IMG/VR virus record: IMGVR_UViG_3300012943_000035
Span: 1-61,732 of that record
Source of the DNA: a virus
Taxonomy: Duplodnaviria; Caudoviricetes
Direction: 5' to 3' (one strand)
Length of the DNA stretch: 61,732 nt
The position numbers and the translations under genes were made by a program. A model generated the notes under the pieces. That model was given only the letters and a program-made list of their open reading frames with translations, searched no databases and was not told the DNA's origin. Positions 7,532 to 40,242 of this stretch are shown here, piece after piece; within the stretch, counting starts at the first letter, position 1; every line of letters begins with the position of its first letter.

Positions 7532-7708
7532 GTGAGCTCCAAGACGCATCTAGAATACATTAAGCAATTTAAGAGACAAGAGTCGCTCTTTAAACTCTTG
7601 TATCTACTTAGAGACTTAGGTATTAAATCGGCTAATAAGCACGCCCCACACGCTTGGGTAGCGTCTATGGACACTTTAACTCAACACATCGCGAGCAAGG
7701 CATGGTAG
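7532..7708 (+). CDS. KLGI-motif microprotein (58 aa, not in ORF track)
   Basis: GTG start; ...ESLFKLLYLLRDLGIKSANK... Confidence 0.65.
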   Translation: MSSKTHLEYIKQFKRQESLFKLLYLLRDLGIKSANKHAPHAWVASMDTLTQHIASKAW

Positions 7709-7989
7709 AACCCTTCTATACCCGACTTTCAATGGATCAGGTAATCGCGACCTATAAACTAGTTAATCTCCTCAGGAGATTGCGAGTTATAGGTACGATT
7801 GAACTTTCAACGGTTGGTTGCACGCCACCGGTTGAAACAATTGGCGATTATGATATCGTCGATATGACCATGAACATCTATGGGATTGAGAAGATTGGAT
7901 ATGATCCAAGCAAAGGGAAGACAGATGTTGAAGACTTATTGGAACAGCTATTCGGAAGAAAAAGTACGAGCCTCAGGGGCACTCCTTAA
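7702..7989 (+). CDS. Hypothetical protein (weak KLGI-type motif)
   Basis: Start overlaps previous stop; YKLVNLLRRLRVIG. Confidence 0.5.
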   Translation: MVEPFYTRLSMDQVIATYKLVNLLRRLRVIGTIELSTVGCTPPVETIGDYDIVDMTMNIYGIEKIGYDPSKGKTDVEDLLEQLFGRKSTSLRGTP

Positions 7990-8215
7990 CATCTTGAAGA
8001 AACTTGGTATCAAGAACTGCGATAAGGCCCTAAGACTCAATTCTCTGTACTCGATCATGTATCAGCAAAAGAAGATGATGCAGGATATCGAACAGCAACT
8101 ATATGGACACTTTAATCTCGGTTACGAGGGCCTGAACGCTCAATTAGGCGCTCAGAAGATTTCCGGTCTAAGCGAACAGCTTCAAAATCAAGACAAGCGC
8201 CCTTCTCGTAAGTAA
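7880..8215 (+). CDS. KLGI-motif protein
   Basis: ALLNILKKLGIKNC; exact start uncertain. Confidence 0.6.
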   Translation: MGLRRLDMIQAKGRQMLKTYWNSYSEEKVRASGALLNILKKLGIKNCDKALRLNSLYSIMYQQKKMMQDIEQQLYGHFNLGYEGLNAQLGAQKISGLSEQLQNQDKRPSRK

Positions 8216-8441
8216 AGCGTGTATCGTTCGGACATTCAGTCTGTCCACATACGCCTACCCAATCAGACATACTGCCGTGTTGGTTCATTGCCTTGGTGGT
8301 GATAGTTTCCAAGTTGATTGTGCAACCCTTCAACTCTCCTCGCTGAATTTCTAACGTGTCGTGAATGTTCACCATCTCAATCGAGTATGGCACAGAACTA
8401 CAACCGCTTAACAACAAGAACAATACTGCTAGCTTCTTCAT
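8112..8441 (-). CDS. Putative lipoprotein
   Basis: MKK + hydrophobic stretch + LSGC lipobox. Confidence 0.65.
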   Translation of the reverse strand: MKKLAVLFLLLSGCSSVPYSIEMVNIHDTLEIQRGELKGCTINLETITTKAMNQHGSMSDWVGVCGQTECPNDTRFTYEKGACLDFEAVRLDRKSSERLIERSGPRNRD

Positions 8442-8779
8442 TTCAAGTACTCCCTAAAGTCTTTTGCGAACCTAACTAGATTCTTTCTTGGCGGCATAGC
8501 ACCTTTACCGTTGGTCAAACGCTCAACTAGCAACTCCTGTGTAACTCCACGAAGCTTAGGTCCGATTGAACCAGGCAGATCAGGATTAGAGTTATGGCAA
8601 GATGTGCATTGAGACTGGTACATGATTCGTCCACGCTTCCACATCTTTGGATCTCTATCGGGTGGAGCAGTAGGTTCTTGGTATGGAGCATGGTTGGCTC
8701 CAACGTAGAACAATCCAGCAAGAACTATTACCGGCAATACCATTAAAGCAATTCGCTTAATCATCTTTCTTATGTCCAA
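8438..8779 (-). CDS. Membrane-anchored monoheme class I cytochrome c
   Basis: N-terminal TM/signal segment, GRIMY..CTSCH heme motif, GPKL and GAMPP (axial Met). Confidence 0.85.
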   Translation of the reverse strand: MDIRKMIKRIALMVLPVIVLAGLFYVGANHAPYQEPTAPPDRDPKMWKRGRIMYQSQCTSCHNSNPDLPGSIGPKLRGVTQELLVERLTNGKGAMPPRKNLVRFAKDFREYLK

Positions 8780-8957
8780 TCGCTTCTAAGTAAGTACTTA
8801 ATACTGAACCTGGCATCATCAAGATGTCTGGCTGTCCATAGTTGCGAAGCATCTTCAACATCGCTCTCTCCATGAAATGAACCTCAGCGCTCTTGATACC
8901 AAGCTTGAAGAGAAGATCTTTCAACGCGATCTTTGCGTCTCCCTTCTTGTCTACCAT
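8757..8957 (-). CDS. KLGI-motif microprotein
   Basis: ALKDLLFKLGIKSA; coupled to neighbouring genes. Confidence 0.65.
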   Translation of the reverse strand: MVDKKGDAKIALKDLLFKLGIKSAEVHFMERAMLKMLRNYGQPDILMMPGSVLSTYLEAIGHKKDD

Positions 8958-9436
8958 GGAATTTCCACTTGCAACGTGATGAAGTCTCTTCCCTTGTTAG
9001 GAAGTTCGAGTCCCGCGCTGCTGATATGCTTGTAAACGAAGCCGATCATGTTCCGACGGTTGTCCCGAAGTCCGATCAGGAAGTCTTGTGTGAACTGGAA
9101 GTTGCCACCGAGCATGGAATCTGGCGATGTGATGAGACCGACGCCCCAAAGGGAGCGAACCACTAGATATCCTGGGTTTACTTCCACTCCGACAGAGTAG
9201 AAACCAAAGCCAGAACTAAGACGGTCATGTCCGCTTGAGTCAGCGAAGAGTCCAAGCTCATATTGATGGATGAAAGGTCCGAACCAATCTTCCTCATATC
9301 CTAGAGAGAAGATCTTTGTCGCAGCGGCTCCGTATTCAGCGCTGCTTAGAATACCTACGCCATACTTACCGAACGAGCCAGCGTTGGCTGTGGTGGAAGC
9401 AATGAGGGCAAGGATACTGACGAAGAGTTTCTTCAT
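8951..9436 (-). CDS. PagL-like outer-membrane lipid A deacylase (acyloxyacyl hydrolase family)
   Basis: Signal peptide, alternating beta-strand pattern, C-terminal aromatic residue, 'YKHISSAGLELPNKG' resembling the PagL HxSNAG..PNxG motif. Confidence 0.7.
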   Translation of the reverse strand: MKKLFVSILALIASTTANAGSFGKYGVGILSSAEYGAAATKIFSLGYEEDWFGPFIHQYELGLFADSSGHDRLSSGFGFYSVGVEVNPGYLVVRSLWGVGLITSPDSMLGGNFQFTQDFLIGLRDNRRNMIGFVYKHISSAGLELPNKGRDFITLQVEIPW

Positions 9437-9448
9437 CAATATGTTATA

Positions 9449-9613
9449 CTATCCAATCTTACGCCAGCTGTCGTTCATGTAGACGTAGGTTCCAGGGATT
9501 CCCTTGTAGACCATGTGGGCTATGTATCCAGCAGGAAAGCTGGGTTGTGGTTTGTTTAGAAGTGTGTAGAGAAACACTATGAGTTGAGCCTTCTTACTTG
9601 CGTCAAGATCCAT
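9449..9613 (-). CDS. Hypothetical microprotein (54 aa, not in ORF track)
   Basis: MDLDASKKAQLIVFLYTLLNK...TYVYMNDSWRKIG; overlaps upstream stop. Confidence 0.5.
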   Translation of the reverse strand: MDLDASKKAQLIVFLYTLLNKPQPSFPAGYIAHMVYKGIPGTYVYMNDSWRKIG

Positions 9614-9797
9614 GCGTCAACCTGTACCTAATGCGTTCACCGTGAATCCTGTGAACATACTCAGTTACTTGTGGCTCTGTCAACAATCTAGCCTTAGCGA
9701 TATCAAGCTTACACAGAAGGATCAAGAGGCACCAAACTGGGTACATACTCTTATTCACTTCTAGCACGACTATCAAATCACTCTTCGTATCGCTCAT
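9603..9797 (-). CDS. KLGI-like motif microprotein
   Basis: CLLILLCKLDIAKA. Confidence 0.55.
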   Translation of the reverse strand: MSDTKSDLIVVLEVNKSMYPVWCLLILLCKLDIAKARLLTEPQVTEYVHRIHGERIRYRLTHGS

Positions 9798-10024
9798 CTA
9801 CGCATCCCATCAGGATTACGCTTGCTTAAGACATAGAGAGACTTATCTGTGTGGATCCAGTATGAGCAGTCGCACTCGCCGCCAGCTCGGTTGATCATGC
9901 CAACCCTATCACCGACGAAGCCAGCCAGCTTGGTGACATTTTCACCTGTGCCGCCGCCGAACGGATCGTGGGTTGTGGTGAACCTACCTTTGGCCTTGTT
10001 AATCTTGAGTGCGGCGATGATCAT
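9794..10024 (-). CDS. Hypothetical protein (paralog of next ORF)
   Basis: HDPFGGG...DGMRR; ATGA coupling. Confidence 0.55.
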   Translation of the reverse strand: MIIAALKINKAKGRFTTTHDPFGGGTGENVTKLAGFVGDRVGMINRAGGECDCSYWIHTDKSLYVLSKRNPDGMRR

Positions 10025-10245
10025 CTTCTCATGCCCTCTGTACTGTGAGGGCCTTTGACGAAGCGATCGTATTGATAGCTGATGCTCTTACTTTTATCCA
10101 GTAAGCCTACGCAGGAATGCAGTTTGTCATCGCGCAAGGTTGCCTTAGAGACCATGAACTGATACCCAACTATGTGTCCATAGCTGTTACCAAACTTGTT
10201 TCCCCACGGGTCGTGAGCCTTGCGGCAGCGTCTACTGATGGTCAT
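10021..10245 (-). CDS. Hypothetical protein
   Basis: HDPWGNK...EGMRR; ATGA coupling. Confidence 0.55.
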   Translation of the reverse strand: MTISRRCRKAHDPWGNKFGNSYGHIVGYQFMVSKATLRDDKLHSCVGLLDKSKSISYQYDRFVKGPHSTEGMRR

Positions 10246-10484
10246 CTATTTATTATACCTTTGGCGGGCCTTCTCATAAGCATGGTCCCAGTCGAGAGCC
10301 ATTGTCCTGACGGCGCCGGTATCTTCATCGACAAACTCAACTGCATCGAAGACTCTAAGCAACATGAGAAGAAGCACGAGCCTTTGAAAAGCCTCTGTGC
10401 GCTCCTTGCGCTTGTCTTTGAAATCTACTACGCAGCGAACCTTTTTCATATGCTAGAAGGCCCCTCCCCGCCTGAGTCGGGAAT

Positions 10485-10787
10485 TTATTTCACTATGTGT
10501 TCACTTACAATTATCTGACCAGAACCTCCACCGCCTCCACCTCCGCCAATCATTTTTACTGATAGCGTCAACGGTACATAAGCGTGCTTGCGGGCAGAGC
10601 GAATACCTAGATCTGCGAGAAGCTTGCAAAGCTTCTGAACCTCGATCGCGGGCAGAATAGTGTAGTGAGCGTTATGTGCGTAGACCAACGGCTTCCCGCC
10701 GAGGCATATCTTCACGGTCCCACCAGATACTACGCGGCCGGCTCCACCGGCTCCGCCAGATTTACTATAACCTTTATGATTCGTCAC
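10485..10787 (-). CDS. KLGI-motif protein with glycine-rich segments
   Basis: KLCKLLADLGIRSARK between GGAGGAG and IGGGGGGGGSGQIIVSE. Confidence 0.65.
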   Translation of the reverse strand: MTNHKGYSKSGGAGGAGRVVSGGTVKICLGGKPLVYAHNAHYTILPAIEVQKLCKLLADLGIRSARKHAYVPLTLSVKMIGGGGGGGGSGQIIVSEHIVK

Positions 10788-10956
10788 TGACGTTCCTCAC
10801 GGTCGTGTAGTAGCGTGGCACGGGCATTATTGCTCCGGCAAACGACATGTGCAACCTGTAATCTCTTGCAGACTTTATCCCTAGCTTATATAGTAGCTGG
10901 AGCAAAGGCCATACATGTGGATCCCACTTGTTCATACGACCCCAACAGGCAAACAC
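10774..10956 (-). CDS. KLGI-motif microprotein
   Basis: PLLQLLYKLGIKSARD. Confidence 0.65.
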   Translation of the reverse strand: MFACWGRMNKWDPHVWPLLQLLYKLGIKSARDYRLHMSFAGAIMPVPRYYTTVRNVSDES

Positions 10957-11150
10957 TTCTTGGCCGAGCGAATACCAAGCTTCGCGAGCAAGTAACAGAG
11001 TTTCTGTGCCTCAGTGGCCTTCGGCCCAAACTCTAGCAACGCTCGTATCCTGGTTGCTAGCTGTTGATCGCTCTCCCCCGGCAAGCGGGAGAGGCCATAC
11101 AAACCGGCAAAGTTCTCGATCACGGTTTTATTGATGTAATTGAAAGACAT
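10932..11150 (-). CDS. KLGI-motif microprotein with baseplate-like segment
   Basis: GLSRLPGESDQQLATRI + KLCYLLAKLGIRSAKK. Confidence 0.65.
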   Translation of the reverse strand: MSFNYINKTVIENFAGLYGLSRLPGESDQQLATRIRALLEFGPKATEAQKLCYLLAKLGIRSAKKCLPVGVV

Positions 11151-11159
11151 GGAGAGATT

Positions 11160-11405
11160 TTACTTGCGCGGACGCGGGGAGCCGAGGATGGTGGTTGGTG
11201 ACATGAATATGAGAGGTCGGCGGATTGGCCCATCGCCTAGTGGTTGGCCTTTGTACATGAGGCGACCAGGGTAGGTGTACCCACAAACCCCTGCCACACT
11301 AATAGCCACGCTGGTGAGGGGCTTGATCGTGCTCTTGATGCCGAGAAGCCGCAAGAGATGGAGTAGCTTCTCCGCTTGAAGGTGAGGGTGCTTGCCTAGT
11401 TTCAT
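11160..11405 (-). CDS. KLGI-motif microprotein
   Basis: KLLHLLRLLGIKST; GGAGG RBS. Confidence 0.65.
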   Translation of the reverse strand: MKLGKHPHLQAEKLLHLLRLLGIKSTIKPLTSVAISVAGVCGYTYPGRLMYKGQPLGDGPIRRPLIFMSPTTILGSPRPRK

Positions 11406-11587
11406 AGTTCGGCCTCCGACACAAATACATAGTCGTAAGAGTAGTGCCTGGCCTTTGTGATGCCGAGCTTAGCTAATAGCAGGAGCAAGGGCTTGCGTTT
11501 TGGGTTTGTGTACCAATGAGCTTTTGGGTCCCCGTAATAGCCAGGAAGCTTGATATTAGCTCCGTTGAACTTGATGTTAATTGCCAT
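11402..11587 (-). CDS. KLGI-motif microprotein with sheath-like N-terminus
   Basis: MAINIKFNGANIKLPGYY + PLLLLLAKLGITKA. Confidence 0.7.
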   Translation of the reverse strand: MAINIKFNGANIKLPGYYGDPKAHWYTNPKRKPLLLLLAKLGITKARHYSYDYVFVSEAEL

Positions 11588-11813
11588 AGTAGTTGAAGTG
11601 GCAGCGTATGCCGAGTTTGTGTAGCAATACTAGTAGTGAGCGATAGTGAAGACTATGTGAACCCGCGATTGGGTTCTTGACGTGAGGGAGGTAGACCGCG
11701 GTGGCCGCGATATGTTTGATGAGGCGATCGGTGGCACCATGATAGATGGCTACGTCGTAGATGTAGTTAGCAAGGTGCTGGTTGTATTGCTCGGCGCGAG
11801 AAGGTGTATCCAT
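11577..11813 (-). CDS. KLGI-motif microprotein
   Basis: Start at TAATG overlap; SLLVLLHKLGIRCH. Confidence 0.6.
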   Translation of the reverse strand: MDTPSRAEQYNQHLANYIYDVAIYHGATDRLIKHIAATAVYLPHVKNPIAGSHSLHYRSLLVLLHKLGIRCHFNYYGN

Positions 11814-11956
11814 TAGTATAGCACACAGATGCCAAGCTTGTAAAGCAAGGTGCAGAACGCGAGCCACTGTGGGGTTGCTTGCATTGCGATGGCGTAATCG
11901 GACCCTTTGTAATTAGGATCTGAGGTTGAGTATGTGTAGGCACGAGCGTAGCGCAT
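11813..11956 (-). CDS. KLGI-motif microprotein (47 aa, not in ORF track)
   Basis: MRYARAY...WLAFCTLLYKLGICVLY. Confidence 0.6.
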   Translation of the reverse strand: MRYARAYTYSTSDPNYKGSDYAIAMQATPQWLAFCTLLYKLGICVLY

Positions 11957-12983
11957 AAATTTTATATTTAAATTATACGAGGGTACCGGTACCCATGTGA
12001 ACCTATTAAACGGCGGAGTAGGGATATGAGTGCCACCTTGGCGGGGTGGTGAATGCCGTATGGTGTGATTATGTAATGTGAGAATGGAACCTTTTGCATT
12101 TTATATTTATACCGGTGTTGGGTACAGGGTACCTGAGTGAACCTATTAGAAAAGCTCATGTGCGCGGTAGGCGCGCAGCGAGTACTGGTCCCGACTCAAG
12201 GGATCCCTTGTAAGCCAAGGCCAGCGGGTGGCTAAAATGACACAGCACCTGCTAGACCTGAGACTAGGAGAACGTATGTGGACAAGACGAGTCGGTTATG
12301 CCTACTATATCGCCAGTGTTCTGAACAGACCTATCACCTACAGGCGAGCATGTGCGATCGCCAAGTCCTTCAGCGAGGACGATCTGCGCCGAATCTACAT
12401 GAGGGTGAAAGCGAGGAACGTATGAAGAGGATTGCTGATCAGGTATTGATCTTGGAAGCGATCGGTCAGGTTAGGACTGAGCTGAGAGAGGACATGTCGT
12501 TCAAGGACATGATGGATGTGATGACTAGGTTGGCAACTCTCTACTCACTCCTGAACGTACACCAACTAAGAGATATCGCGGTTGACGCGGACATGAGAGA
12601 TATTAACGAAAGGAAGGTAGCATGAGCAAGAAATTAATGCAGGCGTTCGAGGATCATACTGAGTGGATGGACATGAGAGAGCATGCGATCGACTTCATCG
12701 ACACCTACACCAACGATGAGATCGCTCAGATGGTCCGCGAGAAGATCCTCACCATCGAAGAGGTTGAGGCAGGTCTCCGCAGAAAGCAGGGTCTATGAGG
12801 ACTTGGTTTGACTACACGATCGAAGCTGGACTTATACTCCTCGCCATCTACGCTGTGGTAGAAGCAGGACGAATCATCGGATCAATCTCCAACATCCCGC
12901 TATTACAGTAGGGAACAGCTGTCCTTAGGGGCAGAGCACGGGACAGGTGGCGCAAGCTGCCTGTCCCTATGCCCGTTCCCTAG

Positions 12984-12999
12984 CTGACACTGCTACGCC
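12984..12999 (+). repeat. Invariant 16-mer CTGACACTGCTACGCC, copy 1
   Basis: Exact match to four other intergenic copies. Confidence 0.9.
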
Positions 13000-13137
13000 A
13001 GGCCTCCCGACTCTATATCTAGTTGTAAGCGATAACAAGATCGGTAACGAAACAAATAACTGATCTTGAAATCCTGACCCTAAACAAGATCATAAGCGAA
13101 ATACACCTCGCTAATGATCACAAACAAAGGAGCAATC

Positions 13138-13617
13138 ATGTCGAACAAAATGTCCCAAAAAGAAGCGGTCTTCTCGGCTGTCACGAACGTCTGCGGAACT
13201 CAAGATGCTGCATACATGCCTTCCAAGGATGAGCGCGCATCGGTGAACCAGATCTTGTTCGAAGGTTTCCGAAGCGGATCGATCGAGTACAAGGGCGATG
13301 TTGCTGCACTGAGCGACTCTGACCTGAAAGGTTATGTGTCTGGTCTTCAGAGCAACTGGCTTCGCAAGGACAAGCGCCTGAACGGCAACGTCCAGTATGT
13401 CGCCAAGAACCCTGGCAGTCGTGCAGGTTCGACCGATCCACAGATCAAGGCAATGCGAGTCCTTCTCAGCACTCAAGAAGATCCTGCCAAGCGCGCTGAG
13501 ATCGAGTCCTTCATCTCCGCTCGTCTCGCAACGATCAAGCCGACCAAGACGACCGAGTTGACCGACGAACAGAAAGCAGTCCTCGAAGCTGCTGGTCTCG
13601 GCCACTTCGTAGAGTAA
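13138..13617 (+). CDS. 'QKEAV...NWLRKDKRLNG' family protein, paralog 1
   Basis: AAGGAG RBS; strong similarity to 19847, 24450 and 39395 ORFs. Confidence 0.8.
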   Translation: MSNKMSQKEAVFSAVTNVCGTQDAAYMPSKDERASVNQILFEGFRSGSIEYKGDVAALSDSDLKGYVSGLQSNWLRKDKRLNGNVQYVAKNPGSRAGSTDPQIKAMRVLLSTQEDPAKRAEIESFISARLATIKPTKTTELTDEQKAVLEAAGLGHFVE

Positions 13618-13667
13618 TCGACCAAGTCATTGAGTGGGGATCAGGGTTAATACCTTGGTCCCCACAA

Positions 13668-13683
13668 CTGACACTGCTACGCC
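13668..13683 (+). repeat. Invariant 16-mer, copy 2
   Basis: Exact match, 3 nt after hairpin GTGGGGATCAGGG...CCTTGGTCCCCAC. Confidence 0.9.
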
Positions 13684-13860
13684 ACCTGCCCCTACTCTGA
13701 CACACCCAATCCCGAAGCAATAGATACACATGACCAACATGGTCAACAACCACGGCGGTTAGCCGAAACCTTGGGAGTGGATAGGTAAACTCATCCGGCG
13801 AGTACAGCGACACAGGTGCGCCTAAAATGACGTGTGTCAACTTTTTAACTAGGAGGTCTT

Positions 13861-14142
13861 ATGTACAACCGACTGAGCATGAACGTAGACCAAGTCGCTG
13901 GTCATCTGATCAAGCATGGGATCAAGTATAAGTCCATCCACCGAACCGAAGAACCAGAGGTGGAGGACGACGCCATCAACATCACCGACCATATCTCTGT
14001 CCAAGTGAGTTCGTACGGAGATGCATACATGTCCGTGGGTCGTTGGGATCCAGTCGCCGAGTGCTTCTTCTACTCACCTGAGCGACTTGGCATTCCTGAG
14101 TTGGTCAACGACATCAAGCTGGCTTTAAAGGAGGAATCATGA
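13861..14142 (+). CDS. Hypothetical early protein
   Basis: AGGAGGT RBS. Confidence 0.7.
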   Translation: MYNRLSMNVDQVAGHLIKHGIKYKSIHRTEEPEVEDDAINITDHISVQVSSYGDAYMSVGRWDPVAECFFYSPERLGIPELVNDIKLALKEES

Positions 14143-14420
14143 GAGGACATAAGTTCATCTGCCTAGTCGATGCGAACTACTTCCATGAGGACTGCTTTAC
14201 TCAAGAAGAGAACGACCAGATCTCCTGGAACGATGACGCGTTCATGACTGTGCTCACACTTGCTCATCCTAAGTTCAGTGACAACTGCGTGACGCTCACC
14301 AACGCAGATGATCCCAACGAGGACTACGAATACGTCCGCACTATTGACGGAAAGCTCTACTACGTAGGCGATTACTGGGACAAGAACGAGACCATACGCA
14401 GGTTCGAACAGACCGACTAA
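14139..14420 (+). CDS. Hypothetical acidic protein
   Basis: AAGGAGG RBS, coupled start. Confidence 0.7.
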   Translation: MRGHKFICLVDANYFHEDCFTQEENDQISWNDDAFMTVLTLAHPKFSDNCVTLTNADDPNEDYEYVRTIDGKLYYVGDYWDKNETIRRFEQTD

Positions 14421-14519
14421 GAACTCAGCTATCCACTACCAGTCTAACAAGACCCATAGAAGCTCGAAGCCAGGTCCCGAATGTGGAGATAGGGACCTGG
14501 CACCCTACCCGACTGCCTA

Positions 14520-14535
14520 CTGACACTGCTACGCC
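14520..14535 (+). repeat. Invariant 16-mer, copy 3
   Basis: Exact match. Confidence 0.9.
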
Positions 14536-14840
14536 GGCTCCCCGAGGAGCTCGACTCAGGTCCAGACCAACCCACGCATAGATCCCGAACCCACATATCC
14601 TCATATGCACAGAGCCGAATGCTTCCGCCGAAGATGTCAGGTCAACCTATCCGTAAGGGCAGTAGAGAGACTGAACTACTTCGGGAGGGAAGCACATATC
14701 CTAATTCCCCTAGAGGAAGAGACGCAGAAGGCAAGGACACTTCTAAGTCTAGCAATCCTCCTAGAACTATTACTGACGGGGAAAAGCGAAGCCTCTCAGA
14801 GGGCGTCGCCAAGCCCCAGGGGTTTGACCAAAGGGTCCTA

Positions 14841-15083
14841 ATGAAATCAGTGAGTTACAAGACCAGAATGTGCCTCAAGTGTAGGCCTAGCAGGATAGAC
14901 CTAAGCAGGCCTAAAGGACCTCTCTACCCTTCCCCTAACGTCCATTGGTGGGTAAGGGATAAGGTAGAGCATAGTCGTTATATATGGGAGCTTGCAGGTG
15001 GTTGCTCGGGTTGTGCAGAGGTATATGAGGATTGCTGTCGAGTGCTAGCTAATCTGCTACATAAATTGGGAGTAAAGATATGA
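14841..15083 (+). CDS. Cys-containing KLGI-motif protein
   Basis: CLKC...CSGC + VLANLLHKLGVKI; TAATG start. Confidence 0.6.
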   Translation: MKSVSYKTRMCLKCRPSRIDLSRPKGPLYPSPNVHWWVRDKVEHSRYIWELAGGCSGCAEVYEDCCRVLANLLHKLGVKI

Positions 15084-15375
15084 GTAGTAGCTATAGGTTT
15101 GATGGGAAATTCTCTAAGAAAGACATTTTAGGTGCCGTTAAGAAGTGTGGGTTGGAGGTGGCTAAGTCTGATTCCTCAAGTTCCACTCAGTTCTGTATCA
15201 CTGATGGTGAGTGCTACATCTGGGCTTATAACGACCGAAAAGGCGTATATGGGTTTGAGCGCTATGGAAACAACTATGATGCTTATGAAGCTATCTTGCT
15301 ACCCCTAGCGGAGGAGCTTGGAGCTGACGTCATCAACGAGGATGAGGAGCAACCTGAGGATATAGGTGAGGAGGA

Positions 15376-15606
15376 ATGAGCGGAAACCATAAGCGTAAGG
15401 ATAGGAATAGGTGGGTTGAGCGACGTGCTCACAGTGCCTTATGCTTGCTTCATCTGTTGGGAGATTTAGGTATTAAGAGCGCTGATGGGGTTGAATCTAA
15501 GTGGAATCCTGACTTCATAGAGGTCTATACAACTCGACATACTAGAGATATGGCCGAACGATTGCATCGCTTATGGAGCTCGGAGCAGAGACTGCCCAGA
15601 TCCTGA
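15376..15606 (+). CDS. KLGI-motif microprotein
   Basis: CLLHLLGDLGIKSA. Confidence 0.65.
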   Translation: MSGNHKRKDRNRWVERRAHSALCLLHLLGDLGIKSADGVESKWNPDFIEVYTTRHTRDMAERLHRLWSSEQRLPRS

Positions 15607-15631
15607 ACCCATAATCACACAAGGAGAACGC

Positions 15632-15898
15632 ATGAGAAAGACATTAGGTTTCACAGTGTTGATGGTTGTGTTGGTCGCTTCTTGCGGACCTTATAAAGTG
15701 CAGGTCGACGATATCAAGGTTGATGGCAACATCACCCATACGATCGCTTTCAACTTCGATGACCTTAAGAAGTACTTCAAGGCTGAGTGTGAAGAAGAGG
15801 TAGCCCCAGCGGATGTCGCTGAGTGCGTGGATGCGAAGGTAGGTAAGTTCTTAACCTTCATGTCCACCCCGCTTCCTAGCCCATCTGCTACGCCTTGA
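15632..15898 (+). CDS. Putative lipoprotein
   Basis: VASC lipobox, AAGGAG RBS. Confidence 0.65.
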   Translation: MRKTLGFTVLMVVLVASCGPYKVQVDDIKVDGNITHTIAFNFDDLKKYFKAECEEEVAPADVAECVDAKVGKFLTFMSTPLPSPSATP

Positions 15899-16070
15899 TG
15901 AGACTACCTAGAGTGTACATAAGGACTGACTTCCCACGTTGGTCTTACGGGATATACGAAGGGGTTTTTAGGCGCAAGGCTGTCTTCGCTAACGACTTAT
16001 GGTCTTGGGATAGGTTTGGTCGAAGGATTAAGGTGAATATTAGGTTTAAAACCATCAGCATTCAAGTCTG

Positions 16071-16601
16071 GTGGTAATGAGGAGTAAGTATATGCTTTAC
16101 TATCATAAGTGCAATGACTGTCTGACAGCTTTTACGACCGTTGAGAGTGTGGTGGACATGTGCGATTGCAATGGTCCAGTCACTCTGATGGGCGTTGTTC
16201 AAGGCGATAAGTATGTGAAGACTGAGAATCGTCCTCCATGCGATGGTCGCTGCACCCATGCTTCTGGTCCTCATTGTGACTGCATGTGTGGTGGAGCTAA
16301 TCACGGCTCTGGCAAGCTCGTTCCTGTGGTTGTTAAAGAGGGAAAGATTTGCGCAGTGGGTCTCAGCGAAGAGGATATCGAGCGAGCTCAGGTTTATAGA
16401 CAGGTTAGAGATGCCGCTCAAGTAGTCTTTGATAAGAAATGGGGCGAAACTTACGCCAAGATTCAGTCTAGAACCTGGATCGATAGACCTGAGTATGTTG
16501 GGTATATCAATGCTTCACGTATGCTGGAAAAAGCCAATGGTCTTCGTCAGCATTGGCCTCGCATCAAGGCTTTGGCAGACTTCATCTCTAAGAATAAGTA
16601 A
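16071..16601 (+). CDS. Cys/His-rich metal-binding protein
   Basis: CNDC, CDC, CDGRCTHASGPHCDCMCGGANHG. Confidence 0.7.
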   Translation: MVMRSKYMLYYHKCNDCLTAFTTVESVVDMCDCNGPVTLMGVVQGDKYVKTENRPPCDGRCTHASGPHCDCMCGGANHGSGKLVPVVVKEGKICAVGLSEEDIERAQVYRQVRDAAQVVFDKKWGETYAKIQSRTWIDRPEYVGYINASRMLEKANGLRQHWPRIKALADFISKNK

Positions 16602-19016: not shown

Positions 19017-19163
19017 ATGGATGAGGAATTAGAGTACGACATAATCAACCGATACGCCATAAAGACTGAGCGATTGATCGATCGCCTGAAACCAGGCATT
19101 AGAGGTTATGCCTCTGTCTTCAACCTAATTACTCTCTTACAGAAACTAGGGATCAAGATATGA
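19017..19163 (+). CDS. KLGI-motif microprotein (48 aa, not in ORF track)
   Basis: ...SVFNLITLLQKLGIKI; TATAAT 7 nt upstream of ATG. Confidence 0.6.
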   Translation: MDEELEYDIINRYAIKTERLIDRLKPGIRGYASVFNLITLLQKLGIKI

Positions 19164-20516: not shown

Positions 20517-21293
20517 ATGAAAAAGTATATCAGTCTTCTGACACTAATGGCTGTCATCGTAGGTTGCAGTCCCGCGAGAGAGGTTGTCCAGATTCAAACT
20601 GGACCTCAAGGTCCTGCGGGCTCGAACGGAGCAGATGGCGCAACTGGACCAGCTGGTCCGCAAGGTCCTGCTGGTCCGCAAGGTCCTGCTGGTCCGCAAG
20701 GTCCTGCTGGTGCAAATGGTCACTCGCTTGTATCTCAGTATCTAGCTGCATCAGAGCTGGAATGTGATAGTGCGGGCGGATCTCGCCTCGATATTTACAT
20801 CGACATGGATGATTCTCTTACGCCTTCCGAAGCCGACCTTTATAGTAACTCTCTTGTTCTCTGTAATGGGCTCAATGGAGCAAATGGTTCCAACGGAAAC
20901 AATGGTCACGATGGTATCGCAGGTCCTCCTGGTTCCGCTGGTCCTCCCGGATTGAACGGTAACCCTGGACACGATGGACTACCTGGACCACAAGGTCAAC
21001 CCGGAACTCCCGGTGCACCTGGATCCAATGGTTCGAATGGCCAAGATGGAGCTCCCGGCCAAGATGCCCATGTTCATCCCAAGAATATCACTGGAAATTG
21101 CTCTTCATTGAGTAGTGGCTATGATGCTCTTATCAAGAACAACACTGTGGAGATCTATACTGCTGGTACTTCATGCTCAGCACCATCCAAAGTGTACACT
21201 CTTACCTCAGCTGCTTCAACCTTCTGGCTCTCCGCTTCGGAGTTGGCCGTGTTCGTCGATCCAGCTGGTGTTCGCGTACTAACTTATAACTAA
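20517..21293 (+). CDS. Collagen-like lipoprotein
   Basis: IVGC lipobox; two Gly-X-Y tracts. Confidence 0.85.
20652..20711 (+). repeat. 18-bp tandem repeat x3.3 (GCTGGTCCGCAAGGTCCT) encoding AGPQGP
   Basis: Perfect tandem copies. Confidence 0.9.
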
Positions 21294-21854: not shown

Positions 21855-22043
21855 ATGTTCATACCACACGAGAAAAAGAAATCACTCACCGCTCTCCTGA
21901 ATGTGTTATCCAAGCTCGGCATAAACTGCCGGTTCGAGAACCTCACTATATCTATATTTACTAGAGGTTATGAGATAACACTAAAAGGATCTGAGCGAGA
22001 TAAGAATATCTCGGATCACAGAAAGAAAGAATTTAAGTTTTAA
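21855..22043 (+). CDS. KLGI-motif microprotein
   Basis: ALLNVLSKLGINCR. Confidence 0.55.
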   Translation: MFIPHEKKKSLTALLNVLSKLGINCRFENLTISIFTRGYEITLKGSERDKNISDHRKKEFKF

Positions 22044-24116: not shown

Positions 24117-24398
24117 GTGTCAACCGAATCGACCCAACAACTGAAGATTGATGATATCGAGCGGTTTGATGCGGTTGAGAATCTAATGTCTCTCTTGCAA
24201 AAACTCTCTATCAAGTCTGCAAAACCTGCTCTTAAAGATCTAGTAATGGATCTTAAGAGCGAATTCTATTGCGGTGACTGCGAAGCTCCTCTCGATGATT
24301 GCTATGGTCACCCAGACTATGACGATTATCCTGACTATGAGGCTGATTACGACGAGCACGCAGACGTCACCGATGAGAAACCAACAAAAAATGGATGA
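24117..24398 (+). CDS. KLGI-motif protein with acidic tail
   Basis: NLMSLLQKLSIKSAK; CGDC..C. Confidence 0.6.
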   Translation: MSTESTQQLKIDDIERFDAVENLMSLLQKLSIKSAKPALKDLVMDLKSEFYCGDCEAPLDDCYGHPDYDDYPDYEADYDEHADVTDEKPTKNG

Positions 24399-24906: not shown

Positions 24907-25047
24907 ATGAGAATAGAGAAAGCTCAGTCTTGCGCCAACCTCATCAGATTGCTTTATAAGCTCGGCATCATTGATCACAACGAAGCTTCGAAATTCATAG
25001 ACCATCTACAAATTATGGTCATGCAATCCGAATCTAATTCTCAATAG
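24907..25047 (+). CDS. KLGI-motif microprotein (46 aa, not in ORF track)
   Basis: QSCANLIRLLYKLGIID; TATAAC 6 nt before ATG. Confidence 0.6.
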   Translation: MRIEKAQSCANLIRLLYKLGIIDHNEASKFIDHLQIMVMQSESNSQ

Positions 25048-28776: not shown

Positions 28777-29271
28777 ATGAATGTCGAAGTCTATTGTGAT
28801 GGGTCAGCAACCATTGCCACACTTCCTGGAGGTTGGGCGTTCGTCATACTGGTTGACGGCGTTAAGTACACGGAAGGATCTGGGCACATTGCTAAAGCTA
28901 CTAATAATATTGCGGAACTTACAGCTGCAATCAGTGGACTCGAGTTTGTCCAAAACGATCCAGGGCTCGCACATAGCACATCTATTACACTTGTATCGGA
29001 TTCACAACTCACACTTCGGTATGCAAGTGGAGAGTATCAATGCCGAAAATATCACCTTGTCCCTCTCTTCTGTAAACTCCGTCAACTTCACGACAAGCTT
29101 AAGATTAAAACAAGATGGGTAAAGGGTCACTCAGGAGAACCAACTAATGAGCGATGCGACGAACTTGCTAAGGCTGCTCGCGGAGGGACAACCGTTACCG
29201 CACAGAGTTCAAGCCTGTCGGTCTCTACGGTTCCTTATGAGGACACTCTCGAAGCTGGGGATCACGAGTAG
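28777..29271 (+). CDS. rnhA: Ribonuclease HI
   Basis: YCDGS, TNNIAEL, SDSQ, WVKGHSG..NERCDELA. Confidence 0.93.
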   Translation: MNVEVYCDGSATIATLPGGWAFVILVDGVKYTEGSGHIAKATNNIAELTAAISGLEFVQNDPGLAHSTSITLVSDSQLTLRYASGEYQCRKYHLVPLFCKLRQLHDKLKIKTRWVKGHSGEPTNERCDELAKAARGGTTVTAQSSSLSVSTVPYEDTLEAGDHE

Positions 29272-29282
29272 CAACGAATTAC

Positions 29283-29591
29283 ATGAACTTACCAACTCGA
29301 TTCGCTATACAAATAGACGCTTCAGGAAAAAAGATGTACCCACCGGAGCGGATCATGATGATCAAGGCTCTACGGGACATGACAAGAGTTCTTGGCAAAC
29401 TTGGACTTAAATCCTGCTATCATGATAACCAAGGATATATAGACTTCTACAAGCAGAACAGTCCAGTTCCAAAGACTTGGATCAATCTACCTGATCGCTA
29501 TAGATATGGTTGGGGTTTAAAAGAAGCTAAGGATGCAGTTGAGAACTATCTAGACAGGTTAAACGCCAAAGCTAGATCCACAACCACATGA
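29283..29591 (+). CDS. bL12 (L7/L12) C-terminal-domain-like protein interrupted by KLGI-type motif
   Basis: IKALRDMT...GWGLKEAKDAVE with RVLGKLGLKSC in between. Confidence 0.6.
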   Translation: MNLPTRFAIQIDASGKKMYPPERIMMIKALRDMTRVLGKLGLKSCYHDNQGYIDFYKQNSPVPKTWINLPDRYRYGWGLKEAKDAVENYLDRLNAKARSTTT

Positions 29592-32656: not shown

Positions 32657-32685
32657 ATGGGAGTCACTCTGACTCCCATTTTTAT
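32657..32685 (+). terminator. Intrinsic terminator
   Basis: ATGGGAGTCA-CTC-TGACTCCCAT + TTTT. Confidence 0.7.
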
Positions 32686-32719
32686 TTCAGCCAGTACAAT
32701 CTACAAAAGGGAGCACAAG

Positions 32720-33388
32720 ATGAACCTCGACAAGCTGCTGCGTAAAGACAGAGATTCTGATGAGATCTGGGTTAATGAGTTCAGTGAAGATAGTGCTGGT
32801 GAGTTTAGGGATGCTTTGTTAGATGCTGCCAAAGGCGATCCTAAGAAACCCATTGTAGTTTATATCGACTCCTATGGTGGCTCAGTTGATGCTCTGTCCA
32901 CCATGATTGAGACTATGGATGAAGTATCTAATCCAATCATCACTGTGGCTGTAGGCAAAGCTATGAGTTGCGGTGCTGTTCTATTAAGCCATGGCGATAT
33001 CAGGTTCTGTGCTAAGAATGCTCGCGTAATGATCCATGAAGTTTCTGCTGCAACCAGCGGTGACGTACACGACATGAACGCAGATGCCACCGAGGTAAAG
33101 CGATTGAACAAGTGGTTCATGGGCTTACTCGCAAGAAACTGCGGTATCAAGGGTGGATACGACGCCCTTCGTAAGACTATTAAAGACCAAGACGGACGCG
33201 ATCGCTATCTTGACAGTGATGCCGCGCTGAAGTTTGGCATTGTAGACGCTGTAGGAATGCCAAGAGTTGAGAAGGTTTCTCTCTATCAGGTTGGCCTTGT
33301 TCCTCCTAAGGAGCGAATTGTAAAGGTAGAAGATAGACCTGTGGCCAAGAAAACTGGCAAGAAAAAATCCGACACGAAACGGAAATAA
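32720..33388 (+). CDS. clpP: ClpP-family protease 1
   Basis: IDSYGG, AMSCG (Ser), MIHE (His), DRYL...FGIVD. Confidence 0.9.
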   Translation: MNLDKLLRKDRDSDEIWVNEFSEDSAGEFRDALLDAAKGDPKKPIVVYIDSYGGSVDALSTMIETMDEVSNPIITVAVGKAMSCGAVLLSHGDIRFCAKNARVMIHEVSAATSGDVHDMNADATEVKRLNKWFMGLLARNCGIKGGYDALRKTIKDQDGRDRYLDSDAALKFGIVDAVGMPRVEKVSLYQVGLVPPKERIVKVEDRPVAKKTGKKKSDTKRK

Positions 33389-34295: not shown

Positions 34296-34345
34296 TCCGA
34301 AACGAGATTTTCCTACGATCCCCATTAGGATCAAAGGAGTCTTAG

Positions 34346-35116: not shown

Positions 35117-35427
35117 GTTGTTGATTCTCTGTCTTATATGCTTGACAGGATGTGGACCACTCACTCCATCGATACCTAAGTCAGGTTTATGTTCAATTCC
35201 AAGTGAATATATGAGTCGATATAATTCAGTTCAAGAACACATCGACTCCTGGACAGAGGTTCAAACAATAATGGGCGAAGCACCGACCTCGATAGAGGGC
35301 GACACACAGACCTACGTTCATTGTAAGGCAATGAGCTTTACATTCTCTGGAAGTGTTTTAGTGAGCAAGCGCATAGAGTAATCTTACGTCCTCCTAGGGT
35401 ACAATTAGTCTATAACCCTAGGAGAAC

Positions 35428-36306: not shown

Positions 36307-36344
36307 TCAATTCCGATCGTATAACAATCCATGGACGGATTGTC

Positions 36345-38340: not shown

Positions 38341-38921
38341 AGAACGAAGGCATTTTCCTACCCTTTGACTGTGAGTCTGGTGGCATCGGTGACGAGGTCT
38401 CTCTGCTCACTGTACACTTCGCAGTCTGTGATGAAGACTGGAACGTCCTTGATGAGCTTGATCTCAAGACCAAGCCAAAGGATGTAGACGAGACTGGTAG
38501 TACCTTATATAAGGTTACCGCTAGTGCTCTCAACATCAACCACATCGACCTGATCAAGCACAATGCTGAAGCCATCCCTTATAACGAGGCCGGCGGTAAG
38601 CTACGCGACTTCCTTATCCGCAACAGTAGGGATGGAGCTATCAAGCTTCAACCCATGGGTAAGAACATCGGTGGCGACGTGGCTTGGGTTACCAACCACC
38701 TCCTTGGTAAGAAGACCTTCGAGAAGTATGTTAGCTATCGTCACTACGATATCACCACTGCAGTAACCTTTCTTAAGCGTACTGGTAAGTTGGATAGGTT
38801 TGCGCCAGAGTCTCTTGAGAAGCTCGCAGAGTACTTCGGTATAAAGGCTCAATGGCACACGGCTCGCGGAGATAACTACGCGGGTATCGAAGTGATGAAG
38901 AAGTTAGAAAGCTTAGCGTGA
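38337..38921 (+). CDS. DEDDh 3'-5' exonuclease
   Basis: FDCESGG, GKNIGGD, HTARGD. Confidence 0.8.
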   Translation: MKNEGIFLPFDCESGGIGDEVSLLTVHFAVCDEDWNVLDELDLKTKPKDVDETGSTLYKVTASALNINHIDLIKHNAEAIPYNEAGGKLRDFLIRNSRDGAIKLQPMGKNIGGDVAWVTNHLLGKKTFEKYVSYRHYDITTAVTFLKRTGKLDRFAPESLEKLAEYFGIKAQWHTARGDNYAGIEVMKKLESLA

Positions 38922-39394
38922 GTGAAACTATATTGATACTACGAACGAATGGCAGGACCTGGGTTCTATTAGCACCCAAGGGTCATGTCATATACGAGCT
39001 ATCGCCACGTACCACCAGTCGTCAGGCTGCGTATGAAGAGGCTAGAGCTTGGGCTTCTAGTTTCAGTAGCACCACAGTGAGGTTCGAAGATGAACAAGAC
39101 CCGAAGAGAGATTGAGTGCATCTCAAGATTGCAGGTGCTCGCTGGAAATGTGGACAATGTCCTAGACTTTCTCATGGGCGAATCTCTTATCACCAGAGAC
39201 GAGGTTAAGGTTCTGAGGTCTTCACCTGATGCACCGAAGGATATCCATAAGATGTTATGTAGGTTGGGTAACGATAACAAGTTCCAACTACTTGAATATA
39301 CTTGGGAAATACTTCCAGTTGAGCGAATCAAGATCTATATTGTTACTGATAGGGCGAGCCAAGAATTCACCTATAATTTTTAGGAGGTCCATTT

Positions 39395-39766
39395 ATGAAG
39401 GGACAGAAACAAGCCGTGGTCGATTACGTTCTAGGTTGTCTTCCTGCCTTTGTTAAAGGCCAAGACATTGCCCTTATGCAGCTCACTAAGGAACAGCTAG
39501 AGAGCATTAAGTTCTCTATTGCTGAAGACATTGCCCTTGGACGAGTTGAGTACAGCAAGGATATCACTAAGATTGCAGAAGTTACTGCTTATGCTCGTTC
39601 TATGGTGATGAACCACCTTAAGAAAGCTAAAGAGCTTAACGGTGGAGTTACCTATGGAAAGACTACTGCTGAAGTAGCCGTTGTAGCCAAGAACAAAGCC
39701 CTGTCCGACATTGATATGAGTGTGCTGCCAGAAGATCTTTCTGAGTTCGTTAAAACCCTGGTATAA
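39395..39766 (+). CDS. 'QKEAV...NWLRKDKRLNG' family protein, divergent paralog 4
   Basis: GQKQAV...YARSMVMNHLKKAKELNGG; AGGAGG RBS. Confidence 0.7.
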   Translation: MKGQKQAVVDYVLGCLPAFVKGQDIALMQLTKEQLESIKFSIAEDIALGRVEYSKDITKIAEVTAYARSMVMNHLKKAKELNGGVTYGKTTAEVAVVAKNKALSDIDMSVLPEDLSEFVKTLV

Positions 39767-39787
39767 TCATAATTCAATGCGCGCGCA

Positions 39788-39860
39788 GGATGCTGCTCAA
39801 TCGAGAGCGGGCTAGGCAATAACGTTAAAGACCTAGATGTGAGGTCGTCCTCACCGTCCA
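39788..39860 (+). ncRNA. tRNA-like cloverleaf element (non-canonical or pseudo-tRNA)
   Basis: GGATG/CGTCC-A closing stem, GCTC/GAGC arm, CTAGG/CCTAG arm with oversized loop, GTGAG/CTCAC arm; adjacent to tRNA-Met. Confidence 0.4.
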
Positions 39861-39875
39861 TTTAAATTTTAAGAT

Positions 39876-39954
39876 CGCAGGGATCGAGCAACGGCGGCTC
39901 ACATGGCTCATAACCATGACGGTGTACTAGATTCGACTTCTAGCCCTGCAACCA
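39876..39954 (+). tRNA. tRNA-Met(CAT), initiator type
   Basis: C1:A72 mismatch, anticodon arm CATGG-CTCATAA-CCATG, T arm CTAGA-TTCGACT-TCTAG, encoded CCA. Confidence 0.9.
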
Positions 39955-39958
39955 ACTT

Positions 39959-40093
39959 ATGGCTGAAACAAGAAAACTTCTATATCTTCTTGCTCTACTA
40001 GAGATCAGATCAGCCTACATCGAATACAATAAGAACAGAGGAATGGGTTGCAATATGTGTGGCTATTCCCAATGGGGTTGCGACTACTGCTAA
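39959..40093 (+). CDS. KLGI-like motif microprotein with CxxC pairs (44 aa, not in ORF track)
   Basis: KLLYLLALLEIRSA...CNMC...CDYC. Confidence 0.55.
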   Translation: MAETRKLLYLLALLEIRSAYIEYNKNRGMGCNMCGYSQWGCDYC

Positions 40094-40242
40094 TGGTCCA
40101 GTATCATCATACAACCGAAGCTTTGCTTAAACTCCTGGTCCTCTTAGGTATCAAGAGCGCAGCAGAACACATAGATGATCTCGACTTCGAAATTCGTGCT
40201 CAACTAATGCCTGACCCTTCATGTGCTTGCGGTTGTTGTTAG
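40093..40242 (+). CDS. KLGI-motif microprotein (49 aa)
   Basis: TAATG coupling; ALLKLLVLLGIKSA. Confidence 0.65.
   Translation: MVQYHHTTEALLKLLVLLGIKSAAEHIDDLDFEIRAQLMPDPSCACGCC

Follow-up and report, generated by a model that had tools for sequence, protein, structure and literature searches.

A short conserved peptide element shared by otherwise dissimilar microproteins in a clade of large soil myoviruses

The viral contig IMGVR_UViG_3300012943_000035 (the whole IMG/VR record of 61,732 bp, hereafter the window; GC content 0.47, CheckV completeness 36%) carries 21 copies of a short peptide motif with the 14-residue core L-[LMI]-x-[LF]-L-x-[KD]-L-G-I-[KR]-S-A-[RK], each located within a small open reading frame (ORF). 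This one short helix, which is under selection, marks dozens of unrelated microproteins across a phage clade, and some of these microproteins combine it with segments that resemble parts of the phage's own virion proteins, a finding that is new here. Small genes of unknown function constitute most of the viral "dark matter", and few rules for reading them are known. An initial annotation, made from the letters of the window alone, had proposed that the motif is a portable docking helix attaching variable payloads to a single hub. The analysis bears out a peptide-level motif in unrelated small proteins that is found throughout the clade and joined to varied payloads, while no hub was identified.

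All 20 motif instances originally listed were found in the sequence at their ORFs, and a 21st instance was located at 29228-29278, within ORF 29147-29410. A profile of 17 columns (xxLLxLLxKLGIKSAxx; profile A1) was built from these 21 instances, with 10 bits taken as the hit line, and the 21 window ORFs score 15.7-28.7 bits against it in the comparison with shuffles (the scores given in the table reach 30.1 bits). Comparison with shuffled controls, a check suggested in the initial annotation, places the frequency of the motif far beyond chance. The six-frame translation of the window contains 14 matches to L..LL..LG[IV] (mean of 0.09 and maximum of 1 in 200 dinucleotide-preserving shuffles) and 11 matches to LL.[KD]LGI (mean of 0.02 in 200 dinucleotide shuffles), such simple patterns lying 150- to 500-fold above the shuffled sequences. 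No ORF in 20 shuffled windows scored 10 bits or more with the profile (best 7.3), and no residue-shuffled ORF did so. The companion check, a search of related phages, recovered the motif in three genomes from which no sequence had entered the profile, with 11, 6, and 12 ORFs at 10 bits or more in relatives G003, G005, and G006, respectively, compared with 0 and 0.05 ORFs in shuffled versions of G003 and G006. Among 177,635 distinct PDB sequences, the top score was 14.2 bits. One further match in the window, at 46601, falls within the NAMPT gene and was discarded as a chance look-alike.

The codon tables show that the Leu, Lys, Gly, Ile, Ser, and Ala positions of the motif vary freely among synonymous codons, and the selection is therefore on the peptide, as had been claimed. 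The 21 window ORFs have a mean codon score of 0.11, compared with 0.36 for long genes and -0.24 for shadow frames. Seven of the motif genes are indeed consecutive on the minus strand (10485-11956). Scans for promoters and terminators in the region 6500-16500 returned matches at the level of shuffled sequence.

A total of 67 unique members, picked with the motif profile, were collected from 11 sources and range in length from 35 to 155 aa (median 64). Relative to the glycine, hydrophobic residues occupy positions -8, -5, -4, -1, and +1, with the leucines at -4 and -1 invariant in all 67 members. The glycine itself is present in 57 members, K or D at -2 in 59, K or R at +2 in 49, serine at +3 in 41, and alanine at +4 in 40; comparable conservation is absent beyond -9 or +5. 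The glycine position lies at least 15 residues from the protein start in every member; in 31 it falls between 0.4 and 0.6 of the protein length (the central fifth), and in 4 it is six or fewer residues from the protein end. The motif can thus be central or C-terminal, as originally described, but not N-terminal. It is restricted to small proteins: in Myxococcus phage Mx1 and six other genomes, no ORF with a length of at least 160 aa reaches 10 bits (best 8.7), and enzymes are therefore not tagged by the motif.

Structures were predicted for two ortholog groups. For the group of ORF 7532, AlphaFold2 (AF2) run on six sequences predicts two helices forming a hairpin that turns at LGIK (pLDDT 79); the first helix ends at D28, directly ahead of L29-G30, and the second begins at the serine. 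For the group of ORF 11160, the model is of low confidence (pLDDT 50), and the helix again breaks right before the glycine. These predicted breaks suggest that the element consists of the end of an amphipathic helix, a glycine cap, and an N-cap for the next segment. Some members have a proline one residue ahead of the helix and flanks rich in proline and glycine, which would suit an element that folds on a partner. A Foldseek search of the PDB with the 7532 hairpin gave no match at E<=0.001 and returned only generic helical hairpins, and look-alikes of ORF 7532 in the ESM Atlas (best score 0.87) included nothing informative. Complex prediction for the 7532 group with ORF 8757, run without controls, scored 0.01, a value that speaks neither for nor against a complex.

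Outside the motif, the carriers are dissimilar, in agreement with the original description. With the motif masked, an all-versus-all BLAST search of 35 members recovered cross-genome orthologs only, and no pair of window paralogues was significant. When the 7532 group (58 sequences) was aligned with the 8757 group (4 sequences) using hhalign, only 21 columns aligned, all of them motif (probability 86.5%, E 4.6e-6). The 7532 group is a genuine conserved family: in a set of 1.84 billion proteins, 57 representative clusters match it at E<=0.001, each of 45-75 aa. For 20 of the 21 window members (ORF 11813-11956 was left out), no Pfam match at the cut-off and no PHROGs family was found (best E 0.0025), and eight members from relatives likewise lacked any Pfam/PHROG-type family match. 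Literature searches gave no description of such a family, in keeping with the initial annotation, which knew of none. A search of the protein collection with 42-aa motif windows, insensitive to a 14-residue motif, returned five proteins, at least three of which come from the window (P0001, P0002, P0004).

The window phage is a large myovirus with a genome of roughly 175 kb and a distant relation of Mx1 (33% identity between the tail sheaths, 55% between the NAMPT proteins). Both phages are large myoviruses with long arrays of small unknown genes, but Mx1, the closest cultured relative, has the motif at 10 bits or more in none of its 1937 ORFs. No close DNA relative of region 7000-16000 was found by megablast among 50,697 phage records. 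A related sheath is encoded at 33 IMG/VR loci (54-87% identity in the best segment), including relatives G001 (68 kb), G002 (109 kb), G003 (147 kb), and G004 (97 kb), and a later scan added the complete relatives G005 and G006 (about 175 kb each, G006 with terminal repeats). GC content ranges from 0.38 to 0.49 across motif-bearing genomes, or from 0.35 to 0.52 if short loci are counted. The number of copies per genome varies from 6 to at least 21 in the clade (6 to at least 12 in the relatives, counted at 10 bits or more). The main cluster is situated about 5-8 kb from the sheath gene in the window (G000), G003, G005, and G006, and the other copies are dispersed between genes for replication and metabolism.

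The whole of IMG/VR contains only 15 stretches, on 14 contigs, that match a degenerate DNA pattern for LxxLLxKLGIKSA, and several of them have two or three matches; small motif ORFs were detected by profile in 13 of the 15 stretches, and at least two such ORFs in 10. Applied to 596 Gb of prokaryotic genomes, this pattern matched 55 stretches, mostly with single matches and roughly at the level expected by chance by our own estimate, and clusters of small motif ORFs occurred on only two contigs. Both are phage-like contigs binned in metagenome-assembled genomes, one labelled Cytophagales and the other Saccharibacteria; the labels disagree and binning is weak evidence, and no host was named from them. 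A scan of IMG/VR with the motif alignment gave 43 matching stretches, the query being too short for confirmation by tblastn. The distant sheath relatives G010-G013 contain at most one weak motif match each. The distribution in IMG/VR and in prokaryotic genomes therefore indicates that the family belongs to one clade of large myoviruses, and the phages that carry the motif form a single clade of large soil myoviruses.

Some of the motif proteins are mosaic. At least five ortholog groups join the helix to segments that, by their sequence similarity, appear to be copied from the phage's own major capsid protein (MCP; residues of about 44-74, 145-168, and 231-267), from the N-terminus of the tail tube, and from sheath residues 1-19; these three are the virion proteins of highest abundance. 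The sheath copy is the most direct case: the start of ORF 11402-11587, MAINIKFNGANIKLPGYYG, is identical to the start of the phage's own sheath, MAINVSFNGATIYKPGAYS, at 12 of 19 residues, 8 of the 12 identical residues being differently encoded. Its ortholog G003_124744 has the same sheath-like start, followed by the motif and then by a segment resembling the tail-tube N-terminus. In ORF 10485-10787, the N-terminus of a tube paralogue precedes the motif; the phmmer match to four paralogues is weak (E 0.015-0.05) and the similarity is clear in alignment. The profile of the tube group matches all tube paralogues, with E values starting at 2.8e-7. Among about 1,000 large ORFs, the profile of the 8757 group matched only MCPs at E<=0.1, best at MCP residues 231-267 (E 1.4e-6 to 4.2e-5 for G002, G003, G005, and G006, and 5.6e-4 for Mx1); these proteins were assigned as MCPs by their match to phrog_752 (E 1.8e-54). 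A further group, the MCP-N-arm group (G005_161894, L060_5999, and L062_7594), carries MCP residues 44-74 after the motif and a stretch like MCP 145-168 before it, and its profile matches four MCPs (E 5e-10 to 4.5e-8). In G006_97170, the usual order is reversed, with the MCP segment first and a degenerate motif (below 10 bits) last.

Two controls bear on these matches. At E<=0.001, none of 67 shuffled members matched a large ORF in any of 10 rounds, compared with 6 real members. When 78 conserved-family profiles were used, fragment-type matches were found in 7 of 64 motif members, all to MCP or tube, versus 9 of 1610 other small ORFs; of these nine, several match a family built on a shadow frame in antisense, and G006_97170 itself is another. 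Synonymous change is saturated in the capsid and sheath copies examined at the codon level, and the MCP-like segment in G005 retains only 52% nucleotide identity to that phage's own MCP gene, different codons being used at 8 of the 12 residues conserved between them. The recoding and low DNA identity indicate that the tested copies are old and have been kept by selection on the peptide rather than arising from recent duplication or gene conversion. Profiles of the groups A3, A5, 9603, 24117, 24907, and 7654 found no fragment of a larger protein, and a baseplate-like segment considered for ORF 10932 was rejected, since the PHROG match has E 0.26 only and the profile finds nothing in six genomes.

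A further segment, in the group of ORF 29283-29591, resembles ribosomal protein bL12. Together with its G005 and G006 orthologs, this group (loci L078:15081-15356 and L082:6770-7171 besides the window) retains IKA[LV]R..T and GWGLK[EK][AS]KD.VE. The match to PF00542 (Ribosomal_L12 C-terminal domain) has E 0.003, with best scores of 18.3 and 17.0 bits over 15-18 residues, and membership in that family was rejected; the likeness is that of one segment resembling the factor-binding helices. In a search of the PDB with the group profile, bL12 accounts for 8 of the top 10 matches. The segment is possibly a mimic aimed at translation factors. As the source of the family-wide motif, bL12 was rejected, because the L12 profile finds a single segment (one sub-threshold match in a six-frame search of five genomes) and no bL12 is present among the PDB matches of the motif profile.

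These features are, tentatively, best explained by modular microproteins that each consist of a bait and a handle. The variable part would act as the bait and engage the natural binder of the copied segment, for example an adjacent subunit within the lattice of the capsid, tube, or sheath, or else a protein of the cell by which the segment is recognized. The shared helix would be the handle, docking all members to one common, conserved partner, which could be a core phage protein of the clade or a universally conserved host protein. Possible outcomes for the bound target include a block on assembly that would come too early, diversion of host sensors by a decoy, and delivery to a protease. Subunits of contractile tails and of HK97-fold capsids typically contact one another through N-terminal arms, and the copied virion segments are presumably contact elements as well. 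That L, G, I, K, S, and A are so strictly kept in genomes with only 60% identity between their sheaths, and over the GC range given above, argues for a specific protein partner and not merely for an amphipathic role.

Several observations weigh against a bait-and-handle arrangement. The members are known here as ORFs read from DNA, and since they were selected with the profile, the figures for their conservation carry some circularity. An identifiable bait is present in only about 11 of the 67 members, leaving about 56 with no readable bait; within the window, baits can be read in 3 of 21 members (weakly in one), and the bL12-like case, itself weak, adds to these. Its scores fall below the Pfam gathering cut-off of 25.9 bits for this 67-position domain, and its PDB matches have E values of 0.09-0.39. 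No partner of the shared helix was found, and no observation connects the motif with ClpP, a membrane, or a compartment. The candidate hubs (AAA, SPFH, MoxR/VWA, and S8 proteins and four unknowns) all occur in G003, G005, and G006 but not in Mx1, a pattern that does not discriminate among them. Finally, the best-conserved group (7532) uses the motif as a predicted hairpin turn with additional conserved positions on both sides, and the model suggests that the motif in this group may serve the fold instead of acting as a free site for docking. The idea of a freely portable tag accordingly stands in part, given that the order of payload and motif varies (reversed, with the motif below threshold, in G006_97170), and may not extend to this hairpin group.

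The hairpin also counts toward the best of the alternatives, which is nevertheless rather unlikely: the microproteins could be fast-diverging paralogues that have kept only a helix-turn core, with the motif serving in structure or self-association (e.g., as a hairpin bundling into homo- or hetero-oligomers), no external hub, and virion fragments serving as raw material for gene birth beside the structural genes. Such an origin would account for the tandem arrays (e.g., the seven consecutive genes), the variable copy number, the central position of the glycine in 31 of 67 members, and the proximity of the main cluster to the sheath gene. However, the fragments tested at the codon level show selection on the peptide instead of decay, and no hairpin can form in the four members that end within six residues of the glycine. 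Hairpin turns are, moreover, usually the least constrained part of such folds, and the side on which the bait lies varies (N-terminal in ORFs 11402 and 10485, C-terminal in ORF 8757).

It is unlikely that the microproteins are decoys against host immunity, in which the copied segments would represent epitopes of abortive-infection sensors and the helix would recruit a common effector such as a phage protease. According to the available text of PMC13728456, phage capsid and other structural proteins do trigger host defence systems, but no such decoy was found in that text or in a broader literature search. The content and copy number of the family are hypervariable, as at arms-race loci, and the phage encodes two ClpP proteins, a subtilase, a trypsin-like protease, and two metallopeptidase-like proteins. 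Nevertheless, nothing links any member to a defence system, and a copy of a trigger epitope could equally activate the sensor. A combined proposition, in which capsid, tube, sheath, and host bL12 supply a library of tagged peptides whose baits occupy the recognizers while the helix hands the targets to a shared machine, is improbable as well; the targets could be, for example, an abortive-infection sensor, a translation factor, or an unassembled subunit, and the machine a phage protease or AAA+ ATPase. If true, it would describe a viral system that neutralizes many targets through one hub.

The initial annotation had named a protease or AAA+ adaptor site as one possible role of the helix. The two ClpP genes (32657-33388, 52674-53582) and the AAA gene at 48786-49790 to which it pointed are present, along with a second AAA gene (54983-56242), and all are conserved in G003, G005, and G006; the L-G-I core also recalls the [LIV]-G-[FL] loops by which Clp ATPases dock to ClpP. 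Yet Mx1 has ClpP homologues and lacks the motif, and known terminal degrons are found at chain ends whereas the motif is mostly internal, making it quite unlikely that the helix is a degron or an adaptor site that targets members or their cargo to the phage ClpP or an AAA+ unfoldase. Very unlikely is a membrane-targeting amphipathic helix (cf. MinD, FtsA) by which assorted small proteins would reach the inner membrane. Leucines at -8, -7, -5, -4, and -1 form one hydrophobic face flanked by lysines at -2 and +2, and some copies lie at the extreme C-terminus; however, targeting helices are conserved in character and not in sequence, whereas the leucines at -4 and -1 never vary and G, I, K, S, and A hold firmly in genomes whose sheath proteins share only 60% identity. 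Nucleic-acid-binding proteins of helix-turn-helix (HTH) or helix-hairpin-helix (HhH) type are hardly credible: although h-x-x-L-G-h-[KR]-S-A resembles a helix-Gly-turn and the AF2 hairpin is compatible, the 20 window members searched have no HTH, HhH, SAP, or Rho_N match in Pfam at E<=1, four members have no second helix, and proline often occurs within 3-5 residues past the motif.

Membership in individual known classes was rejected on similar grounds. An HTH domain is contradicted by the absence of any HTH family at E<=1 and by the four members ending six or fewer residues past the glycine, and the HhH motif by K, D, or L at its first-glycine position in 64 of 67 members, with no HhH family reported. 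Precursors of ribosomally synthesized and post-translationally modified peptides, which have a conserved N-terminal leader, are disfavored because the position of the motif varies and no LanM/LanB, YcaO, or radical SAM enzyme occurs among 40 larger ORFs searched in the window (which represents 36% of the genome, so that such an enzyme may lie elsewhere). The capsid targeting sequence of phage T4 is similarly a short peptide common to several unrelated phage proteins, but it is N-terminal and cleaved by the prohead protease, while the phage motif never lies in the first 14 residues and cleavage is not indicated; a signal of this type was ruled out by the position of the glycine in all 67 members.

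Other known systems provide analogies to a bait joined to a handle. F-box and SOCS-box proteins and bacterial protease adaptors such as SspB (with its ClpX-binding tail) likewise carry a short common element on unrelated proteins, the variable part providing target specificity. The phage proteins differ in being far smaller, in having an element of 14 residues with no identified hub, and in showing no sequence relation to these systems. The flagellar type III export chaperones FliS, FlgN, and FliT are small, helical, client-specific proteins that bind an assembly interface and dock on a common platform; the counterparts here would be the contact segments of sheath, tube, or capsid and the common handle, if binding to virion proteins is assumed, but FliS, FlgN, and FliT contain no copied client segments and no common short motif of this kind. 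A handle combined with a bait constitutes a testable design principle, under which the natural peptides are expected to bind assembly interfaces or their sensors, and the 14-residue element is a defined probe with which to fish out the common partner. A partner of host origin would be a new point of attack in phage takeover, and one encoded by the phage would be a new assembly or counter-defence hub.

The motif ORFs of the window and other features are listed in the following table.

Coordinates of motif ORFs in the window and of associated features (motif locations and scores refer to the 17-column profile; relatives are named where coordinates are not those of the window)
Feature	Coordinates	Strand	Details
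58-aa microprotein	7532..7708	+	LLYLLRDLGIKSA at 7589-7639; 27.0 bits; most conserved ortholog group; orthologs in G001, G002, G003
111-aa microprotein	7880..8215	+	LLNILKKLGIKNC at 7976-8026; 23.4 bits; codon score higher than in 99% of shadow ORFs
66-aa microprotein	8757..8957	-	LKDLLFKLGIKSA at 8880-8930; MCP-like C-terminal part at about 8769-8873
64-aa microprotein	9603..9797	-	variant LLILLCKLDIAKA at 9684-9734; 20.1 bits; ortholog G001_3056-3223; called gene P0001 in the protein collection
100-aa microprotein	10485..10787	-	tube-like N-terminal segment at about 10647-10736; LCKLLADLGIRSA at 10587-10637; Gly-rich tail
60-aa microprotein	10774..10956	-	LLQLLYKLGIKSA at 10861-10911; 30.1 bits, top score of the window
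72-aa microprotein	10932..11150	-	LCYLLAKLGIRSA at 10956-11006, near C-terminus; 28.1 bits; ortholog L065_8644-8853
81-aa microprotein	11160..11405	-	LLHLLRLLGIKST at 11322-11372; relatives P0003, P0005
61-aa microprotein	11402..11587	-	sheath-like residues 1-19 (11531-11587); LLLLLAKLGITKA at 11444-11494; ortholog G003_124744
96-aa microprotein	11577..11867	-	LLVLLHKLGIRCH at 11592-11642, near C-terminus; 25.7 bits
47-aa microprotein	11813..11956	-	FCTLLYKLGICV at 11816-11863, C-terminal end; 23.0 bits
154-aa ORF (80 aa from 14841)	14619..15083	+	LANLLHKLGVKI at 15039-15080; 19.2 bits; protein ends 3 residues past Gly
76-aa microprotein	15376..15606	+	LLHLLGDLGIKSA at 15439-15489; 25.5 bits; low codon score
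48-aa microprotein	19017..19163	+	LITLLQKLGIKI at 19119-19160, C-terminal end; 22.1 bits
62-aa microprotein	21855..22043	+	LLNVLSKLGINC at 21888-21938; 23.7 bits; called gene P0002
93-aa microprotein	24117..24398	+	LMSLLQKLSIKSA at 24177-24227; 24.1 bits; acidic, Cys-containing tail; motif degenerate in ortholog G003_108402
46-aa microprotein	24907..25047	+	LIRLLYKLGII at 24934-24984; 23.7 bits
Doubtful 87-aa ORF	29147..29410	+	FLMRTLSKLGITS at 29228-29278; 23.3 bits; overlaps end of RNase H gene and ORF 29283-29591; codon score equal to shadow ORFs, looks non-coding
102-aa microprotein	29283..29591	+	MTRVLGKLGLKSC at 29373-29423; GWGLKEAKDAVENY, like the bL12 C-terminal domain, at 29505-29552
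44-aa microprotein	39959..40093	+	LLYLLALLEIRSA at 39971-40021; 22.2 bits; Cys-rich tail
64-aa microprotein (shorter from 40093)	40048..40242	+	LLKLLVLLGIKSA at 40117-40167; 22.9 bits; tail ends SCACGCC
111-aa conserved protein, degenerate motif	7654..7989	+	YKLVNLLRRLRVIGT; orthologs in G001, G002, G003 keep degenerate motif
67-aa ORF, degenerate motif	10246..10449	-	RLVLLLMLLRVFDA; ortholog G001_2090
63-aa ORF, degenerate motif	11968..12159	-	LISLLRRLIGSHG; ortholog G001_737
Tail sheath gene	297..2498	-	codons 1-19 supplied the copy in ORF 11402-11587
Tube paralogue array, G001	13797-15738
Tube paralogue array, G003	134489-136305
Tube paralogue array, G005	149750-151712
Tube paralogue array, G006	84938-86864
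c-type cytochrome	8438-8779	-	CxxCH site; PF13442, E 1.1e-8
Putative lipoprotein, 109 aa	8112-8441	-	LSGC lipobox, recognized by eye
PagL-like lipid A deacylase	8951-9439	-	PF09411, E 2.1e-9
Collagen triple-helix repeats, 258-aa protein	20517-21293	+	PF01391, E 1.3e-17
NUDIX domain in 508-aa protein	4241-5767	-	PF00293, E 1.6e-15

Some motif ORFs are arranged in overlapping pairs. ORFs 29147-29410 and 29283-29591 overlap in different frames directly downstream of the RNase H gene, and two motif ORFs in G003 (104483-104801) overlap each other by 41 nt. A third pair (39959-40242, plus strand) adjoins tRNA-Met (39876-39954) and an aminotransferase gene (40255-41319), and its members have the Cys-rich tails GCNMCGYSQWGCDYC and SCACGCC. 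These tails are reminiscent of modified-peptide precursors, and no modifying enzyme was seen in the window.

Three genes within the microprotein cluster, for the c-type cytochrome, the putative lipoprotein, and the PagL-like lipid A deacylase, are unusual cargo for a phage, and their predicted products point to a Gram-negative host. The window also encodes a set of protease and quality-control proteins that is unusually large for a phage (32657-33388, 34346-35116, 35428-36306, 26794-27423, 50787-52058, 52674-53582, and 54983-57730). The set consists of two ClpP proteins (one with a weak NfeD-like match), a subtilase, a trypsin-like protease, a phage metallopeptidase, an SPFH/Band 7 protein, and a MoxR-like AAA protein adjoining a VWA-metallopeptidase (DUF2201), and all but the trypsin-like protease are kept in G003, G005, and G006. 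Other enzymes encoded in the window are RNR, ThyX, DNA ligase, and RtcB. A set for NAD salvage is formed by NAMPT (46435-47814), a fusion of cytidylyltransferase-like and NUDIX domains (NadM-type NMNAT-Nudix; 44384-45394), and an AAA_28 protein (59665-60210, plus strand) that is 41% identical to a protein annotated as NMN adenylyltransferase in Mx1. We take this set to resemble the phage NAD-reconstitution pathways reported as counter-defence.

Among the structural genes, the sheath gene of every relative examined is followed by a tandem series of three or four tail-tube-like paralogues of 187-227 aa; most myoviruses have one tube gene. The protein with collagen triple-helix repeats is encoded among small genes of early type. 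The NUDIX domain of the 508-aa protein lies within the structural gene block, and the structural region of Mx1 contains a very large protein annotated as NUDIX.

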